A DNA stretch of 64,000 nucleotides from Candidatus Latescibacterota bacterium (GCA_965204725.1 OZ242005.1:4224001-4288000), one strand, 5' to 3'. Counted from the first letter of the stretch, positions 15,396 to 58,276 are shown. Notes: generated by a model from the sequence alone, not told the origin. Made by a program: numbers and translations.

Positions 15396-15471
15396 TGGCT
15401 GCCCCCCTAGGGCTCGAACCTAGAACCTCCTGATCCAGAGTCAGGCGCACTTCCAATTGTGCTAGAGGGCA
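15396..15471 (-). tRNA. tRNA-Gln(CTG)
   Basis: Cloverleaf, anticodon arm CCTGA-CT-CTG-GA-TCAGG, GTTCGAG T-loop, encoded CCA. Confidence 0.95.
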
Positions 15472-15483
15472 ACTCGGGAAAAT

Positions 15484-15577
<94 letters not shown>

Positions 15578-15652
15578 GAAACTTAAAAATAAACTTTTGA
15601 CGTGTTCCCATCGCTAAAAGGGATGGGATTGTGGCGGCATCAAATGGTGAAC

Positions 15653-15739
15653 TGGCGGAGGGTGAGGGACTCGAACCCTCAAGGGCGTAAGCCCGGCGGT
15701 TTTCAAGACCGCTGCCTTACCAATTAGGTCTAACCCTCC
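15653..15739 (-). tRNA. tRNA-Ser(TGA)
   Basis: GGAGGGT acceptor, GCGGT-CT-TGA-AA-ACCGC, long variable arm, G73-CCA. Confidence 0.95.
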
Positions 15740-37600: not shown

Positions 37601-38566
37601 TTATGAGGCTACTGGGTAATTATCAAGCCGCCTTTGAATGAGCATCGCCTGTAGATAACCCCGAGTGCGGCTGGACCAGAACAGGTAACTAAAGACCAAA
37701 TCCGGGACATAGGTTTTCATAAGCCAGCGGGTCAACCAGCGGATTGGATAGTGAATCGGCGACAACAGGGCTAGCTGAAGTGCTATCCGCCGAGGAGAAA
37801 ATGCAGAGGCCCTGATAAAGTCCAGCCGGAGGACGGCGTCAAGTTCAGGGTGCTTGCGTAAAAGGACGGGGATTGACTTGCTGCCGTAAGTTTGCATTAA
37901 GCGGCAGAGTGGCTCCAATGAACGCAAGTGATAGTGGTAGGACAGGGCTTCAGGGGCATAGTAAAGCGGAATACCCGCTAAATGGAGGCGGTACCCCAAT
38001 TCTAGGTCTTCGCCGCCATAAGCAGTGAGATCCTCGTCGAAAAAACCCACGCGGCGCAGAGACGACCGGCGAACCGAGGAGTTGCCGGTGACGAAGCACT
38101 TGAAAGGTATGGGCTTATCCGTGTCGACCCTGTGAACACCCCTTCTTTCGAGATAGCGGGTCAGGGATGTAGTGGGAATTTCAGGGGCAAAGCGGATGTT
38201 ACCGATAAAAACAGCTTCTACATGGGTTTGATGCCGTTGGGCATGGGCACGGAGAAAATTTATGCCAACGGTCATATCGCTGTCGAGAAAGACAACTACA
38301 TCACCGCTGGCTACTCGAAGTGCCGCGTTGCGTGCCCGAGCGCGTCCCTGATTCTGTTCGTTGCGAATCAACCGCAACTGTAAAGGCGCGACTGCCGCAT
38401 GTAAGTGATCGGCGTCCAAGTGGGGGGAGGCGTCGTCCACCACGATGATTTGAATCGCCTCATGGGGATAATTTTGCTGCGACAGGCTTTTAAGTGCTGC
38501 TTCGAGGCACTCAGGCTCGCCATAGGTAGGCATCACGATGCTGAGCGTCAGCGGGGAGGCACTCAT
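37601..38566 (-). CDS. Family 2 glycosyltransferase
   Basis: SIVMPTY, VVDDAS, ARN, FLDSD, GGEDLELGYRL. Confidence 0.92.
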   Translation of the reverse strand: MSASPLTLSIVMPTYGEPECLEAALKSLSQQNYPHEAIQIIVVDDASPHLDADHLHAAVAPLQLRLIRNEQNQGRARARNAALRVASGDVVVFLDSDMTVGINFLRAHAQRHQTHVEAVFIGNIRFAPEIPTTSLTRYLERRGVHRVDTDKPIPFKCFVTGNSSVRRSSLRRVGFFDEDLTAYGGEDLELGYRLHLAGIPLYYAPEALSYHYHLRSLEPLCRLMQTYGSKSIPVLLRKHPELDAVLRLDFIRASAFSPRRIALQLALLSPIHYPIRWLTRWLMKTYVPDLVFSYLFWSSRTRGYLQAMLIQRRLDNYPVAS

Positions 38567-39678
38567 GCTAGAGTTGCATAAAGCTGGGTGAGTTGGGCGG
38601 CTTCTCGTTCCCAGTTATAGTGCCGTGCCGCCTGCAAACTCGCCTTAGTACATGCCTCCCGCTGCTCTGCATTGTCCAAAAAAGTGGCGATCTGCTCTCG
38701 GATGGCAACTATATCGGTTGGATCGACCGTAGCCCCGGTACGTGTTTCGCGGACGATACGTTGCATTTCAGGAAAGTTGCTAGCTAGGACTGGTAGCCCG
38801 GCCATCATATATTCAAAGAGCTTGTTGGGCAGAGAGTAGTAAAAGCTCTTGCCCGTGCCTTTTATCAGACACAGTCCCAAGTCGGCCGAGCAAGTATAGT
38901 TGTGAAGTTGGTGAAAGGGCACCCGGGGAATAAAGAAGACTTGGTCGTCTAGTCTCGCAGCGCGGACTTGGTTCCGCAGGGCCTGTTCGCTAGGCCCGTC
39001 CCCAATCAAAACTAAGGCAGCGGCAAGCCCAGCAGCGGCCTCAATTTGCTCGCGCAAGCCATTTTCGGTGAGGAATCCCCCTTGGTAGAGAACAATAGGG
39101 CGGTCATCGGGCAGGTCCAGCGTTTCGCGTATCAGGTTGCTTTGGTCCTTATGGCGGAATAGAGGCAAATTATGCAGAACAACGACCTCGTCAAGGCCGT
39201 AACGCTCCTTGAGTGATTGGGCGATAGACCCACTGACGGTTATGACTCGATCTACCTGTCTTATCAGCCGCTTCTCTAGCAAACTCCAGCAGGACCGCAT
39301 CAGCGGCCGACTGACCAGTGAGGATTGTTCGGTCCAAAATTCGTGTGAGTCATAAACGATGGGCCGATCTAGTCGCCGCGCAGCCCGCACTGCTGGCCAA
39401 AGCGAATCTAGGTCGTGGGCGTGATAGGCATCCGGGTGGATCTCAACCAATAGTCGATAAGCTCGTTGCCAAAACAAAGGATAGAGGCGGCGCAATGAGA
39501 GGCTGCGGTCTAGCGGAATCGGATGGACTTCAAAATTGTCCCATCCCTTGAGAGGGGCTGAGTTGAACGAGGAGGCGACAATGACGACTTGGTAACCAGC
39601 ACGGTGTAGCGAAGTGGCCTCTCGGTAGATGCGGTAGTCGAAATTCAGGTCGGTGAAGGCGACCATACAGATACGCAT
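38563..39678 (-). CDS. Family 4 glycosyltransferase
   Basis: HAHD, YDSHE, SLPNKLFEYMMAGLPV, YNWE; likely ATG 39678. Confidence 0.92.
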   Translation of the reverse strand: MRICMVAFTDLNFDYRIYREATSLHRAGYQVVIVASSFNSAPLKGWDNFEVHPIPLDRSLSLRRLYPLFWQRAYRLLVEIHPDAYHAHDLDSLWPAVRAARRLDRPIVYDSHEFWTEQSSLVSRPLMRSCWSLLEKRLIRQVDRVITVSGSIAQSLKERYGLDEVVVLHNLPLFRHKDQSNLIRETLDLPDDRPIVLYQGGFLTENGLREQIEAAAGLAAALVLIGDGPSEQALRNQVRAARLDDQVFFIPRVPFHQLHNYTCSADLGLCLIKGTGKSFYYSLPNKLFEYMMAGLPVLASNFPEMQRIVRETRTGATVDPTDIVAIREQIATFLDNAEQREACTKASLQAARHYNWEREAAQLTQLYATLA

Positions 39679-39706
39679 GACGTATAAAGGAATAGGCATA
39701 AAGGCC

Positions 39707-39747
39707 AAAAATAAAAGCAGCCCTTTTATTAAAAATGGGCTGCTCTT
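39707..39747 (-). terminator. Intrinsic terminator between the structured RNA and the GT4 gene
   Basis: Minus strand AAGAGCAGCCC-ATTTTTAATAAAA-GGGCTGCTTTT-ATTTTT. Confidence 0.8.
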
Positions 39748-39753
39748 AAAGAA

Positions 39754-39911
39754 AGAGTGTGGCGGCCAGATGGTGTGATCTTGAAACGCAAGTGAGATCC
39801 TCAAACGAGGCGGTGTGGGGAGGTAGTTTTGAAGATCTCAATGACCCGAAAAGGGAAATCCGAGCTTCGCGGATCAGGACTTTGGCCACGCTATGCGGAC
39901 CGCCACACTCT
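39754..39911 (-). ncRNA. Unclassified structured RNA (~160 nt)
   Basis: 12-bp perfect terminal stem (39754-65/39900-11), three internal hairpins, G-U pairs only on the minus strand, own promoter and terminator. Confidence 0.7.
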
Positions 39912-39923
39912 ATGTTGGAAACT

Positions 39924-39952
39924 AAAATACACACGCTAGATTGTGTTGTCAA
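39924..39952 (-). promoter_or_regulatory. Promoter for the structured RNA with palindromic site
   Basis: TTGACA-N17-TATTTT with extended TG; CACA-N8-TGTG at 39930-39945. Confidence 0.7.
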
Positions 39953-39989
39953 GTAGAAAAACATGCGATAAGAAAATGGTAATGGAGTC

Positions 39990-40018
39990 TTGCACACTTA
40001 CAAGTGTGTGCATATCTT
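39990..40018 (+). promoter_or_regulatory. Promoter and operator of the XRE gene
   Basis: TTGCAC-N17-TATCTT with inverted repeat CACACTT-AC-AAGTGTG at 39993-40008. Confidence 0.7.
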
Positions 40019-40058
40019 AGTAGAGGAGATGGTTGAAAATCGTTCGGAAGGATCGCAG

Positions 40059-40592
40059 ATGCAGTTTGCTGAAATGATCAAGGAGGCCCGGCTACAAGCC
40101 CATCTAAGCCAGCAGAGATTGGCCGAACAGCTCGTGACGGCACGAAGGCCCAAGGGCGTATGGGCAACCTATATAGGACAAATTGAGAAGGGGGAGAAGG
40201 TCCCTTCTGACGAAATATGTATCAAGTTGGCCGAGGTATTGGAACTAGACTCTAATAAAGTGTTGATTGCGGCCTATGAGGCCAAGGCGAGCTCGGAGGA
40301 AGGGCGTGCGATCTATGGCAAGATGATGCGCTTGCTGTCGGACCCAGTAGTCAACCAGCTCTTGTCTAACAAAGAGCCTTTGGATCCAGCCCTCTTGGGA
40401 TTGCTCTCTAATCCAGAAATCGTGGCTCTGCTCGGGGATAAACCGTGGTTAGAGGCCGTTGCCCGAGTGCATGAGAACCAGAAGGAACGCGATGTGTTGT
40501 CCCTGCTCGCTTTAGTAGAAGCGATGGACGACAAACAGTGGAATATGATAATGGGCCTTATAGAGACTTGGGGCTTAGGGCTGCCTAGTTAA
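40059..40592 (+). CDS. XRE-family HTH transcriptional regulator
   Basis: IKEARLQAHLSQQRLAE...TYIGQIEKGEKVPS...KLAEVL; start 40059 or 40029. Confidence 0.85.
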   Translation: MQFAEMIKEARLQAHLSQQRLAEQLVTARRPKGVWATYIGQIEKGEKVPSDEICIKLAEVLELDSNKVLIAAYEAKASSEEGRAIYGKMMRLLSDPVVNQLLSNKEPLDPALLGLLSNPEIVALLGDKPWLEAVARVHENQKERDVLSLLALVEAMDDKQWNMIMGLIETWGLGLPS

Positions 40593-40649
40593 GGAGGCCG
40601 ATTCGCTTAGCGGATGAGGAGAATCACAGCAAAAAGAGCTAATGTCTGG

Positions 40650-41108
40650 TTAGAAGTCGGGTAGTTGGTACTCGCCGCGCTCAATGGCTTGCTCTAACTC
40701 TTGGTGGAAGGTGCTGTCTAGGTGGGAAGTGATTTTCCAACCACTAGAATCGCGAAGAAAATAAAAGAATGGAGACGTGCGCTCATCGTCTATCGTTGAA
40801 GAATCAAAGAGTAGGTAGCCGATGCGCTCGTTGATGATGCGCTCTTCGGCGATTTCTCGACGCAGGTAAGTTTTTACTTCGGCTGGCGTCTTTTGCCGCC
40901 ATCGTTCGACAAAGCTCTGACGATCTTCTCCCCCTACTTGCGAAGAATTGAAACATTCCCAAAGCAGGTCAAAGTCGCGGTTTTCTAGCGCGTATTTATA
41001 GGTTTGGAAGGTCTGAGCCGGGTGGGAGAAGCGTTGGTCTATGTCTTCGCTGTTACAGCCGTGCAGGAGGGCGAGACAAAGAAATAGAAGAAATGGTTGT
41101 AAGGCCAT
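40650..41108 (-). CDS. Hypothetical lipoprotein
   Basis: Hydrophobic leader with lipobox LHGC; start could be 41147. Confidence 0.7.
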   Translation of the reverse strand: MALQPFLLFLCLALLHGCNSEDIDQRFSHPAQTFQTYKYALENRDFDLLWECFNSSQVGGEDRQSFVERWRQKTPAEVKTYLRREIAEERIINERIGYLLFDSSTIDDERTSPFFYFLRDSSGWKITSHLDSTFHQELEQAIERGEYQLPDF

Positions 41109-41188: not shown

Positions 41189-41884
41189 TCAGTGCTTGGC
41201 TTTATTAACGAGCAATTCGATTGCGTCACGTAGCCGAGCAGCCTCTTCGTATTCTTCGCAGATAACGGCCTGTTGTAGCTGGTGCTGAAGCAGACTGAGT
41301 TCGTCTTTCTCTTCCTTGAGGGGCTGTTGAGTTTCGGCCTCTTCAGCGTTCCGCTTCGAGGGGCGGATGTCGACCGTATCGGTTTCTATATTGAGCGACT
41401 TGGAAATCTGCGTTTCAAACTCATAAAAACGGTTCAGGGTGTGTTCAACGTCCAAGTCGGTCTCCAAAGGATCCAAGCCCACCTCGTCCAGCAACGCATG
41501 AGAAACGTAGATAGGCGCATCAGTACGCAAGGCCAAAGCAATAGCGTCGCTGGGACGTGCATCGATGTCTTTTATTGTGTGATCCTTCTCAATGACGACC
41601 CTTGCGTAGTACGTTGAGTGGCGCACGTTGTGAATGACGACTTGGCGCACATTTACCGCAAGGTCATCAACCATAGAAGAGAGCAAGTCGTAGGAAATCG
41701 GACGTATAGGCCCATCGTTTTCTAGCCGCATCCGAATGGCGGCGGCCTCAAATTCGCCAATGGGAATGGGCAAGAGCCGCGGCAATTCACCTTCCTTCTC
41801 GCTTAACCAGACCAAGGGCCTATCCTCTCGCAAGTAGGGACTAACCTTGACCACGGTCATCTCGACTAAAGAGGTATTACTCAT
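41189..41884 (-). CDS. Bifunctional nuclease (DUF151) with C-terminal UVR domain
   Basis: LPIPIGEFEA, RPISYDL, DARPSDAIALALR, EEYEEAARLRD. Confidence 0.9.
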   Translation of the reverse strand: MSNTSLVEMTVVKVSPYLREDRPLVWLSEKEGELPRLLPIPIGEFEAAAIRMRLENDGPIRPISYDLLSSMVDDLAVNVRQVVIHNVRHSTYYARVVIEKDHTIKDIDARPSDAIALALRTDAPIYVSHALLDEVGLDPLETDLDVEHTLNRFYEFETQISKSLNIETDTVDIRPSKRNAEEAETQQPLKEEKDELSLLQHQLQQAVICEEYEEAARLRDAIELLVNKAKH

Positions 41885-42501
41885 TAATCATCCCTGTTGA
41901 GGCGGCTAATCTCGTCGCGAAGCCGTGCCGCCTCCTCATAGATTTCTTCGGCAACAGCTTGGCACATGCGTCTTTTGAGTTGGTCTAACTGGCTGACGGC
42001 TGGTGGGGCGATGATGGGACGATCTGCCTGCGGTGCGGCCACGGATAGGGCGAGGGCTTCAACTTCAGTTGGAACCCATTCGCCATCGTCGGAGCGAACG
42101 CAGCCCACCTCTTTGAGGATTTCGATGGCGGCGTAGATCGGTGCGCGAGAGCGCAAGGCTAGGGCAATTGCATCGCTGGGACGTGCGTCGAAAGTATGGG
42201 GCTTGCCCGCGTAGTCAACGAGGTGAACCTCGGCGTAGTACGTTCCCTCGCGTGAGTTAAAGTAAGTGATTTCGACCCGGGCTACCCGAGCATCGACGTT
42301 GGCGAGAATCTGATGGGTTAGGTCATAACTGAGTGGGCGCACAAACCGCCGCTTGCTGTGGGCCATAGAAATGGCTGCCGCCTCAAAGCGGCCGATGACA
42401 ATGTGCAGATAATGGTTGCCCTCGACTTCTTTGAGTACTACTTCAGGGTATAAAGAGTGAGATTTGCTGCTTAAGACCTCCTTGACTTCCATCAGAACCA
42501 T
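41884..42501 (-). CDS. Bifunctional nuclease (DUF151) with C-terminal UVR domain, paralogue
   Basis: IGRFEA, RPLSYDL, DARPSDAIALALR, EIYEEAARLRDEI. Confidence 0.9.
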   Translation of the reverse strand: MVLMEVKEVLSSKSHSLYPEVVLKEVEGNHYLHIVIGRFEAAAISMAHSKRRFVRPLSYDLTHQILANVDARVARVEITYFNSREGTYYAEVHLVDYAGKPHTFDARPSDAIALALRSRAPIYAAIEILKEVGCVRSDDGEWVPTEVEALALSVAAPQADRPIIAPPAVSQLDQLKRRMCQAVAEEIYEEAARLRDEISRLNRDD

Positions 42502-58201: not shown

Positions 58202-58276
58202 AGCCCGGTCGTTCAATTGGTAGGACAACGGATTTTGGTTCCGTTTATCGAGGTTCGAGTCCTCGCCGGGCTGCCA
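58202..58276 (+). tRNA. tRNA-Gln(TTG)
   Basis: AGCCCGG/CCGGGCT acceptor, ACGGA-TT-TTG-GT-TCCGT, GTTCGAG, G73-CCA. Confidence 0.95.

Follow-up and report, generated by a model that had tools for sequence, protein, structure and literature searches.

What is made from the minus strand at positions 39,707 to 39,952 of a 64,000-nt stretch of the genome of a Candidatus Latescibacterota bacterium (GCA_965204725.1, OZ242005.1:4224001-4288000)? We refer to this whole stretch as the window and give positions in its numbering, with G000 for the source genome and C1 for the contig that holds the window. A preliminary description, drawn from the sequence of the window, had proposed an unannotated structured RNA of ~160 nt with its own promoter and terminator, to be read as a new small RNA (sRNA), as an atypical 6S- or Y-like RNA, or as an attenuating leader of the glycosyltransferase genes that follow. 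The locus encodes a real, previously undescribed non-coding RNA, which represents a new family and which we call the large RNA. Its most conserved part, an apical loop, is complementary to a G-rich partner RNA gene elsewhere in the genome, and we consider it probable, judging from sequence and its conservation, that the two form a chaperone-independent sRNA/anti-sRNA (sponge) pair analogous to RoxS/RosA. The sRNA part of the preliminary description stands; the decisive feature, a complementary RNA 758 kb away, lay beyond what the window alone could show.

The gene and its RNA comprise the following parts.

39924..39952, minus strand: promoter, with the -35 element TTGACA at 39952-39947, a 17-nt spacer and the -10 element TATTTT at 39929-39924
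39946-39929, minus strand: inverted repeat ACACA-N8-TGTGT in the promoter spacer
39754..39911, minus strand: conserved RNA core of ~158 nt, from the covariance-model match and homologue alignments
39898..39911, minus strand: 5' strand of helix P1, AGAGUGUGGCGGUC, pairing with 39767-39754
39754..39767, minus strand: 3' strand of helix P1, GGCCGCCACACUCU
39867..39871, minus strand: 5' strand of helix P3, CGCGA, pairing with UUGCG at 39791-39787 at the base of a three-way junction
39844..39865, minus strand: hairpin P4, GCUCGGA-loop-UUCGGGU, with the conserved C-rich loop UUUCCCUU
39793..39840, minus strand: apical stem P5, 39840-39828 with 39805-39793, around a 22-nt loop at 39827-39806
39804..39824, minus strand: predicted pairing site for the partner RNA, ACCUCCCCACACCGCCUCGUU, which contains the anti-Shine-Dalgarno-like ACCUCC
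39768..39786, minus strand: single-stranded 3' segment with the semi-conserved motif GAUC(A/G)CAC, from the alignment
39707..39747, minus strand: intrinsic terminator, a long GC-rich hairpin followed by a U-run, from folding

The promoter of the preliminary description, TTGACA-N17-TATTTT, is present on the minus strand at 39952-39924. It matches the consensus at 10 of 12 positions, is the sole promoter-like site on that strand within 39000-40700, and is identical letter for letter in the main part of the genus. The U-tailed terminator is there as well: folding shows the hairpin and U-run at 39747-39707, which a simple terminator scan did not list, and a hairpin with a U-run also lies 3' of the core in the printed flanks of homologues, in a sequence that varies among genera. 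Transcription would start at ~39916 and end at ~39707, and the primary transcript, with leader and terminator, would be ~205-210 nt long around the conserved core of ~158 nt. A coding reading, based on a 31-codon frame that runs from a UUG across the loop, was dropped because single-base indels between close relatives break the frame.

The RNA strand of the region folds with a minimum free energy of -81 kcal/mol, compared with -48.4 +/- 4.3 in 200 shuffles (z = -7.7); the opposite strand gives z = -4.8. Five helices are supported by RNAalifold and by pair counts over 38 sequences that include distant genera. In the consensus fold 94.6% of cells are paired and 23 of the 39 pairs show compensatory changes on both sides among the 38 homologues, as counted on an alignment that was fitted to the model and therefore favours structure. 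None of 500 shuffles reached the observed pairing and double changes, and slid controls paired at no more than 44%. G-U cells number 261 and A-C cells 27, so that 94.6% of cells pair on the minus strand vs 78.6% on the other. This identifies the minus strand as the RNA strand and agrees with the earlier remark that the irregularities of the stems are G-U only on that strand.

The pairing described for the transcript ends is helix P1 (39911-39898 with 39767-39754), which is 97.8% paired and has changed on both sides at 4 of 12 pairs; a small hairpin comes after it in the consensus fold. Likewise, the 13-bp stem that had been described, UGAGAUCUUCAAA with UUUGAGGAUCUCA, is P5, which closes the 22-nt loop, is 95.4% paired and has both-side changes at 10 of 12 pairs. 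Such changes also occur at 4 of the 5 pairs of P3, for example from C-G to U-A, and at 3 of the 7 pairs of P4 (93.7% paired). The proposed hairpin AUCCG/CGGAU did not hold. In 18 of 39 sequences its third pair cannot form, its covariation is not significant, and it is incompatible with the covarying P3, so that the covarying three-way junction takes its place. The proposed CCC/GGG hairpin is better read inside P4 (GCUCGGA...UUCGGGU) and is uninformative, since it never varies.

The junction of P3, P4 and P5 displays two C-rich loops, UUUCCCUU in P4 and ACCUCCCC within the apical loop, both unpaired in the consensus fold, and the middle of the RNA after P1 is partly single-stranded. The apical loop is the most conserved stretch of the RNA. 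It is invariant within the genus, with ~20 invariant bases (ACCUCCCCACACCGCCUCGU), and can be recognised even in the most distant genera, which keep CGCCUCGU best. The motif CACAC occurs three times, in the apical loop, in the 3' segment and in the 3' strand of P1.

Rfam 15 lists no family at the RNA locus at gathering score, its only matches in the whole window being four tRNAs elsewhere. At E <= 10 the RNA region gave best E values of 0.75-8.6, with 14-15 bits vs cut-offs of 33-98 bits, and the novelty claimed for the RNA stands. A literature search, with supplementary files outside its scope, found no work on regulatory RNAs of Latescibacterota (formerly WS3). The large RNA is single-copy in G000. 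By blastn it is carried by 28 of 30 genomes of the genus at 88-98% nucleotide identity, compared with 80-95% amino-acid identity for the neighbouring proteins; the two genomes without a match are 58% and 77% complete. A search of one-genome-per-species contigs with the loop pattern matched 50 stretches, of which ~40 are the large RNA and the rest lie isolated in unrelated sequence. A covariance model built from 39 distinct sequences matches G000 over its full length at C1:4263754-4263911, minus strand (184.7 bits), and has exactly one full-length match in 55 of 75 other genomes of the same Latescibacterota family. Counting G000's own genus, the large RNA occurs in 15 of the 18 genera of the family, and the 56 genomes searched from three sister families of the class gave no match. 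We conclude that the large RNA is restricted, as far as searched, to one Candidatus Latescibacterota family.

Most records that bear the RNA are labelled Candidatus Latescibacterota, and a few are labelled only 'uncultured bacterium'. About ten metagenome-assembled genomes have the label Gemmatimonadota or Gemmatimonadetes but share both the RNA and its neighbouring genes; these labels look doubtful, since several of the genomes are near-identical to genomes of the same genus.

The RNA also appears in sequencing runs. Of 24 listed runs, 16 are recorded as RNA, and in each of these 12-20% of the words sampled from a 451-nt stretch around the RNA are present. The contigs of four runs, each from a different study (X2, X3, X4 and X11), were examined. 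Summed word depth of contigs on 39759-39891 reaches up to 1.85e5 in X3, 1.7e4 in X4 and 2.5e4 in X11, and in these runs it is at most 72 on the flank towards the glycosyltransferase gene and at most 53 on the flank towards the divergent regulator gene; because word depth sums over related organisms it is a poor measure of expression, to be read as a hint of abundance and not as a ratio. Run X2 has a flat, low depth over genes and spacers alike and is uninformative. We take these depths as a sign that RNA libraries contain the core of the large RNA, but not its flanks, at high level, and that the RNA is apparently abundant. The lack of an Rfam match, the conserved and covarying structure, the conserved promoter and terminator and the high-depth contigs together support the earlier suggestion of a new sRNA.

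Neither X3 nor X11 has a high-depth contig over 39892-39912, which holds the 5' strand of P1, and adapters abut at 39765 and 39885 in X11 and at 39758-39764 in X4. The gap over the 5' strand of P1 could mean 5' processing, although contigs cannot show ends. A joint in X3 that 'goes back 128' was considered as a trace of a circular or permuted RNA and rejected, the simplest reading being a relative's 5' variant GGCCCACUGGCAUGGCC (as in L023) that was split by the aligner.

A scan of the G000 genome for complements of the apical loop gave a single near-continuous match, in the intergenic region C1:3505911-3506000, 758 kb from the window.

C1:3505947-3505998 of G000 (L140:1548-1599, L169:1501-1552), plus strand, outside the window: partner RNA, ~52 nt, G-rich

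The partner locus lies between a divergent gene for an NAD-dependent epimerase and, in G000, a glucokinase-like gene; the gene downstream of it differs among genomes of the genus. The locus is kept in all 24 sampled genomes of the genus, with the ~52 nt as its best-kept part. Three parts stand out in its alignment: the promoter, a 5' stretch without variation (CUCACACGAGGCGGUGUGGG), and a terminator hairpin whose loop varies and whose two G-U pairs are valid on the G-rich strand only. In other genera, TTGACA-N17-TAnnTT precedes each copy of the partner. With these elements the partner would be transcribed from its own promoter to its own terminator. In both RNA genes the -10 region has the form TAnnTT(T/G)G behind a TTGACA -35, as in TATTTTTG and TTACCTTGG; such a -10 resembles the TAnnTTTG of Bacteroidota promoters and is here combined with the usual -35.

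Rfam lists no family for the partner (best AbsR28, 19.4 bits vs a cut-off of 50). With a second covariance model, R2, the partner is detected in G000 and in 30 of 30 genomes of the genus; seven other genera add 19 genomes at E < 1e-3 (g22 7/8, g24 5/5, g16 2/3, g3 2/2, g4 1/1, g19 1/1, g7 1/2). Both RNAs are found in 43 genomes, the large RNA only in 13, the small RNA only in 7 (all 58-89% complete) and neither in 13.

The loop and the complementary stretch of the partner, its seed, can form 15-18 contiguous pairs in 17 of 17 comparisons, one of which used the identical loop of a sister genome. The predicted energies range from -31 to -38.6 kcal/mol, compared with means of -13 to -20 and a best value of -31.6 for shuffled seeds. 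In G000 the duplex is predicted at -37.2 kcal/mol and opening costs 2.7 and 18.4, which leaves a net -16.1. In each RNA the duplex falls on the invariant stretch, and some genera have complementarity that extends into the 3' strand of P5. Genus g3 (G032 and G104) has loop CCGUCUCG with seed CGAGACGG vs CCGCCUCG with CGAGGCGG in all others, a double change that counts as one event since it is found in two genomes of one genus. In G099 a C-to-U change in the seed retains a G-U pair. The genomes thus hold two separately encoded RNAs, the second with a putative promoter and terminator, that share conserved, extended complementarity, as an sRNA and its sponge would. Hfq was not found in G000, and long duplexes fit this.

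In some genera a further locus bears the same complementarity. Genus g22 and the genomes G015, G017 and G024 have a second exact copy of the loop 15-mer; in g22, three genomes (G108, G110, G111) have one exact site each and no large-RNA match by covariance model. On the G-rich strand, 12 fetched copies read AAGGCGGUGUGGGGAGGU, then a conserved UGGUUUUACGGCUGG, then a terminator, and in 11 of the 12 the terminator hairpin beside the 15-mer has its greater stability when read in this orientation. On that strand the locus reads as a second partner RNA of some genera. At this third conserved non-coding locus (L137-L139 in G024, G015 and G017; L255-L260 and L263-L265 in g22) the 15-mer stands beside a two-way terminator, and ~150 nt beside the locus are also kept between genera, including AGAGGUGGUCAUUUCAAGCC and CUGUAUCUGAU on the C-rich strand. 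Extra copies of the 15-mer in G034 (C78), G100, G101, G103 (C1:590793) and G130 were set aside as chance or coding, since their surroundings are GC-rich and coding-like and show neither promoter nor terminator. A 20-nt match to the G103 loop in G100 and G101 (L266, L267; genus g20, in which the large RNA was not found) also lies in a coding-like region, whose opposite strand would read ...LHEAAWGG..., similar to an ankyrin repeat; this match could be chance or a target site.

We suggest that the apical loop would base-pair with the 5' end of the ~52-nt G-rich RNA encoded at C1:3505947-3505998 and, in some genera, also with the second G-rich RNA, and that these RNAs would be a regulator and its antagonists acting by long, chaperone-independent duplexes. 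The large C-rich RNA would act, for example by masking Shine-Dalgarno (SD)-like G-rich sites, and the G-rich RNAs would switch it off. The large RNA is the more widespread of the two across genera and has further conserved parts, which makes it somewhat more likely to be the primary actor. The reverse direction, in which the large RNA would be a decoy for sibling G-rich regulators, is nearly as likely, since the sibling G-rich RNAs share the seed.

This proposal has a precedent in Bacillus subtilis, in which the C-rich sRNA RoxS is antagonised by the stand-alone G-rich sponge RosA, and in Staphylococcus aureus, with RsaE, RsaG and RsaD on one side and RsaI on the other; C-rich sRNAs of this type pair with SD regions, and G-rich sRNAs antagonise them (PMC8216469). 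The likenesses to RoxS/RosA are that C-rich regions are single-stranded and would pair with G-rich SD-type sequences, that a G-rich sRNA from a transcription unit of its own, with promoter and terminator (putative ones here), pairs with the C-rich regions, and that the organisms have no known sRNA hub protein (PMC8216469). In particular, the large RNA has unpaired C-rich motifs able to pair with SD-like G-rich sequence, as RNAs of the RsaE/RoxS type do. The systems also differ. There is no sequence or model similarity: the Rfam scan of the window and of the RNA region lists no homology to the RsaE/RoxS family, so the resemblance is functional only. The C-rich RNA is larger here (a ~158-nt core with a three-way junction) and the G-rich RNA has ~52 nt, whereas RosA has ~229 nt; one stretch of 15-18 bp takes the place of the several short C-rich/G-rich contacts of RoxS/RosA; and the phylum is a different, uncultured one. 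The large RNA would thus be of a known kind, a base-pairing sRNA with an RNA antagonist, and it may do more.

The ribosome belongs to the context of the proposed pair. The 3' end of the 16S rRNA reads GGAUCACCUCCUUUCU, with the tail ACCUCCUUUCU, which is a canonical anti-SD, and SD-like motifs lie upstream of 38% of crude start sites vs 11% of control windows. In an extension of the proposal, the large RNA might be a housekeeping-grade global regulator that mimics the anti-SD tail, its loop competing with 16S rRNA for SD sites or binding a core protein such as RNA polymerase, and that dedicated SD-mimicking RNAs (GGGGAGG) encoded elsewhere would turn on and off by invading the apical stem. We rate this as rather unlikely; if true, it would be a three-component, RNA-only switch without a described counterpart.

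Several observations weigh against an sRNA/sponge pair. The intermolecular covariation rests on the single independent event in g3, and genus g16 has one A-A mismatch within the duplex. A helix of 15-18 bp cannot fit a closed 22-nt loop, and binding would therefore have to distort or open P5. Cofolding of both full RNAs gained -0.6, the same as with shuffled seeds, a result that is uninformative here because the method forbids pairing into a closed loop; full-length duplexfold gave meaningless long loops. A genome-wide RNAduplex scan with the loop found no convincing mRNA targets, its matches being mostly gapped and GC-driven, and only the partner was accepted from it. In 13 genomes with the large RNA the partner was not found, and a targeted search of ten genomes with the large RNA only (g26, g6, g7, g23, g2, g21) gave none: the searches in g26, g6, g7 (G036), g23, g2 and g21 returned weak matches without complementarity to the genome's own loop, and a 3-mismatch pattern search was too noisy to read. 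Given these absences, the large RNA may function without a partner. A plain decoy role does not account for the sequence conservation of P1, of the P4 loop and of the 3' segment, and the evidence from runs consists of contigs, which carry neither strand nor ends. Finally, the element shared by the two RNAs is an inverted repeat, CACAC-N6-GUGUG, like the ACAC...GTGT of the promoter region, and copies of an inverted repeat in opposite orientation would be complementary even if the repeat were a DNA operator.

This last point has to be weighed together with the DNA upstream of the RNA gene, which holds a second repeat and a regulator gene.

39992..40011, no strand assigned: second inverted repeat, of the type GCACACAC-TTGTAA-GTGTGTGC, between the RNA promoter and the regulator gene
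40029..40592, plus strand: divergent XRE-type helix-turn-helix (HTH) protein of 187 aa, Pfam HTH_3 6.7e-09

In 63 of 64 loci the HTH gene adjoins the RNA gene in divergent orientation; the set of neighbouring loci (64 here, 68 below) counts many genomes twice. Of 38 regions upstream of the large RNA gene, 27 have repeats of the form ACAC-N4-14-GTGT, compared with a shuffled mean of 0.6 and a maximum of 3; in G000 one of them lies within the promoter spacer and the other toward the HTH gene. The second inverted repeat is a candidate operator, and the XRE-type protein is a candidate regulator of the RNA gene through the ACAC...GTGT repeats. Could the 20-nt element shared by the two RNA genes itself be an operator, for the XRE-type protein or for another factor, with the complementarity a product of its opposite orientation? 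The upstream repeats and the divergent HTH gene would fit this, as would the form of the element, CACAC-N6-G(U/G)UUG or GUGUG, in both genes. However, in the large RNA the element is found ~90 nt into the transcript, precisely at the loop of a stem with strong covariation, and distant genera keep its spacer CGCCUCGU better than its arms, the reverse of usual operators. Its complementarity extends past the repeat into CCUCC/GGAGG, the promoter repeats have unrelated spacers, and the double change in g3 sits in the spacer. We regard the operator explanation as quite improbable.

In the main part of the genus a promoter module, TTGACAACACA-N-GTGTGTA(A/T)ATT, immediately precedes the RNA; in most other genera it is placed ~100 nt upstream, and a second ACAC...GTGT repeat lies just before the core. 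Given this distance, the RNAs of those genera may have a longer 5' leader or a second promoter.

On its other side, the RNA gene is followed by two glycosyltransferase genes.

38563..39681, minus strand: GT4-family glycosyltransferase, Pfam Glyco_transf_4 9e-24 and Glycos_transf_1 7e-23
37601..38566, minus strand: GT2-family glycosyltransferase, the downstream neighbour, Pfam Glycos_transf_2 3.4e-28

As first described, these genes start shortly after the terminator, without a clear ribosome-binding site: the ATG of GT4 (39681) lies ~25 nt past the U-run, and no SD is visible. The large RNA could be a cis leader or attenuator, that is, the 5' part of the GT4-GT2 transcript, whose terminator would set read-through, perhaps with the partner RNA, a protein or a ligand in control. 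On this view the short RNA would be either a by-product or an sRNA of dual function derived from the 5' untranslated region. In line with this, GT4 adjoins the large RNA in 65 of 68 loci with tight and conserved spacing, 100-200 nt past the loop on the same strand, even where GT4 is 54-63% identical. Moreover, the 25 nt from U-run to ATG, with no SD seen, are too short for a separate promoter, and a contig of run X3 on GT4 extends upstream into a T-rich stretch.

Other observations count against a leader. The terminator is a long GC-rich hairpin whose sequence differs among genera, the spacer between it and P1 is variable, and there is no conserved alternative pairing of the terminator with the core, the invariant 3' strand of P1 included. 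These properties point to a constitutive terminator and argue against a riboswitch-type platform. No riboswitch family matched in Rfam, and contig depth on GT4 is at most 72 vs 1e4-1e5 on the core in three RNA libraries, with the caveats on depth given above. One locus, L062, has the RNA without an adjacent GT4, and the peak of conservation is the apical loop, which a trans-encoded RNA matches. Leaders of polysaccharide genes, such as cyclic di-GMP riboswitches, likewise place an RNA with a closing stem and a terminator directly before glycosyltransferase genes; unlike them, the large RNA has no family match, a terminator that does not compete with the core, and its conservation peak in an apical loop with an RNA partner. 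The conserved spacing stands, but an attenuating leader is unlikely as the main role. We treat GT4 as a neighbour that may receive some read-through.

Elsewhere in the window, two adjacent paralogues at 41189-41884 and 41884-42501 (minus strand) each encode a BFN_dom bifunctional-nuclease domain with a UVR motif, and of the four tRNAs three are clustered at 15399-15739 (minus strand) and one lies at 58202-58273 (plus strand).

The overall shape and apparent abundance of the large RNA raise the question of whether it binds a protein, either as a 6S-like decoy of RNA polymerase or as a sponge for a protein that binds C-rich or CACAC sequence, with the G-rich RNAs releasing or blocking it. Like 6S RNA (RF00013), the large RNA is single-copy, appears abundant from its high word depth in RNA libraries, falls in the 160-200 nt range and has paired ends, and it is helical with a partly open middle between a closing stem and a long distal stem. 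The three CACAC motifs and a P1 sequence kept beyond the needs of pairing would also suit a protein ligand. RF00013 has no match at E <= 10 in the whole G000 genome or in the RNA region, with controls matching in E. coli, B. subtilis and others, which can be counted for this reading. However, RF00013 is equally unmatched in 61 of 61 class relatives, including 24 genomes of families without the large RNA, so the gap does not discriminate.

6S RNA is defined as rod-like, with a large central bubble between closing and terminal stems and with its conservation on the bubble. The large RNA does have a closing stem, an open middle and a distal stem, but its middle varies in sequence and length, its distal part is a three-way junction, and its conservation peaks in the apical loop; neither a three-way junction nor an invariant apical loop is a known feature of 6S RNA. 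The product RNAs of 6S are templated on 6S itself, whereas the RNA complementary to the large RNA is encoded in trans. No candidate for a protein partner emerged. We hold a protein-binding role to be distinctly unlikely, and the idea of an atypical 6S RNA found no support. The remaining suggestion, a Y-RNA-like partner of a Ro protein, recalls the paired 5' and 3' ends that enclose a structured middle. The TROVE domain of Ro (PF05731) is unmatched in G000, which is 94% complete, with controls matching in Deinococcus and Bacteroides, and no Y RNA or YrlA family matched; this suggestion has almost no probability left.

The probable pairing of the large RNA with its G-rich partner bears on these bacteria in several ways. 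There would be two, possibly three, new RNA families linked by conserved complementarity, and, if the proposal is true, RNA-against-RNA control of the RoxS/RosA type extends to a distant, Hfq-less lineage. The loop and seed offer a clean, testable prediction by compensatory mutations. The fixed place of the large RNA beside glycosyltransferase and HTH regulator genes suggests a link to cell-surface sugar chemistry. Finally, the large RNA is easily detected in metatranscriptomes, and it could serve as a marker for these bacteria and as an entry to their physiology.

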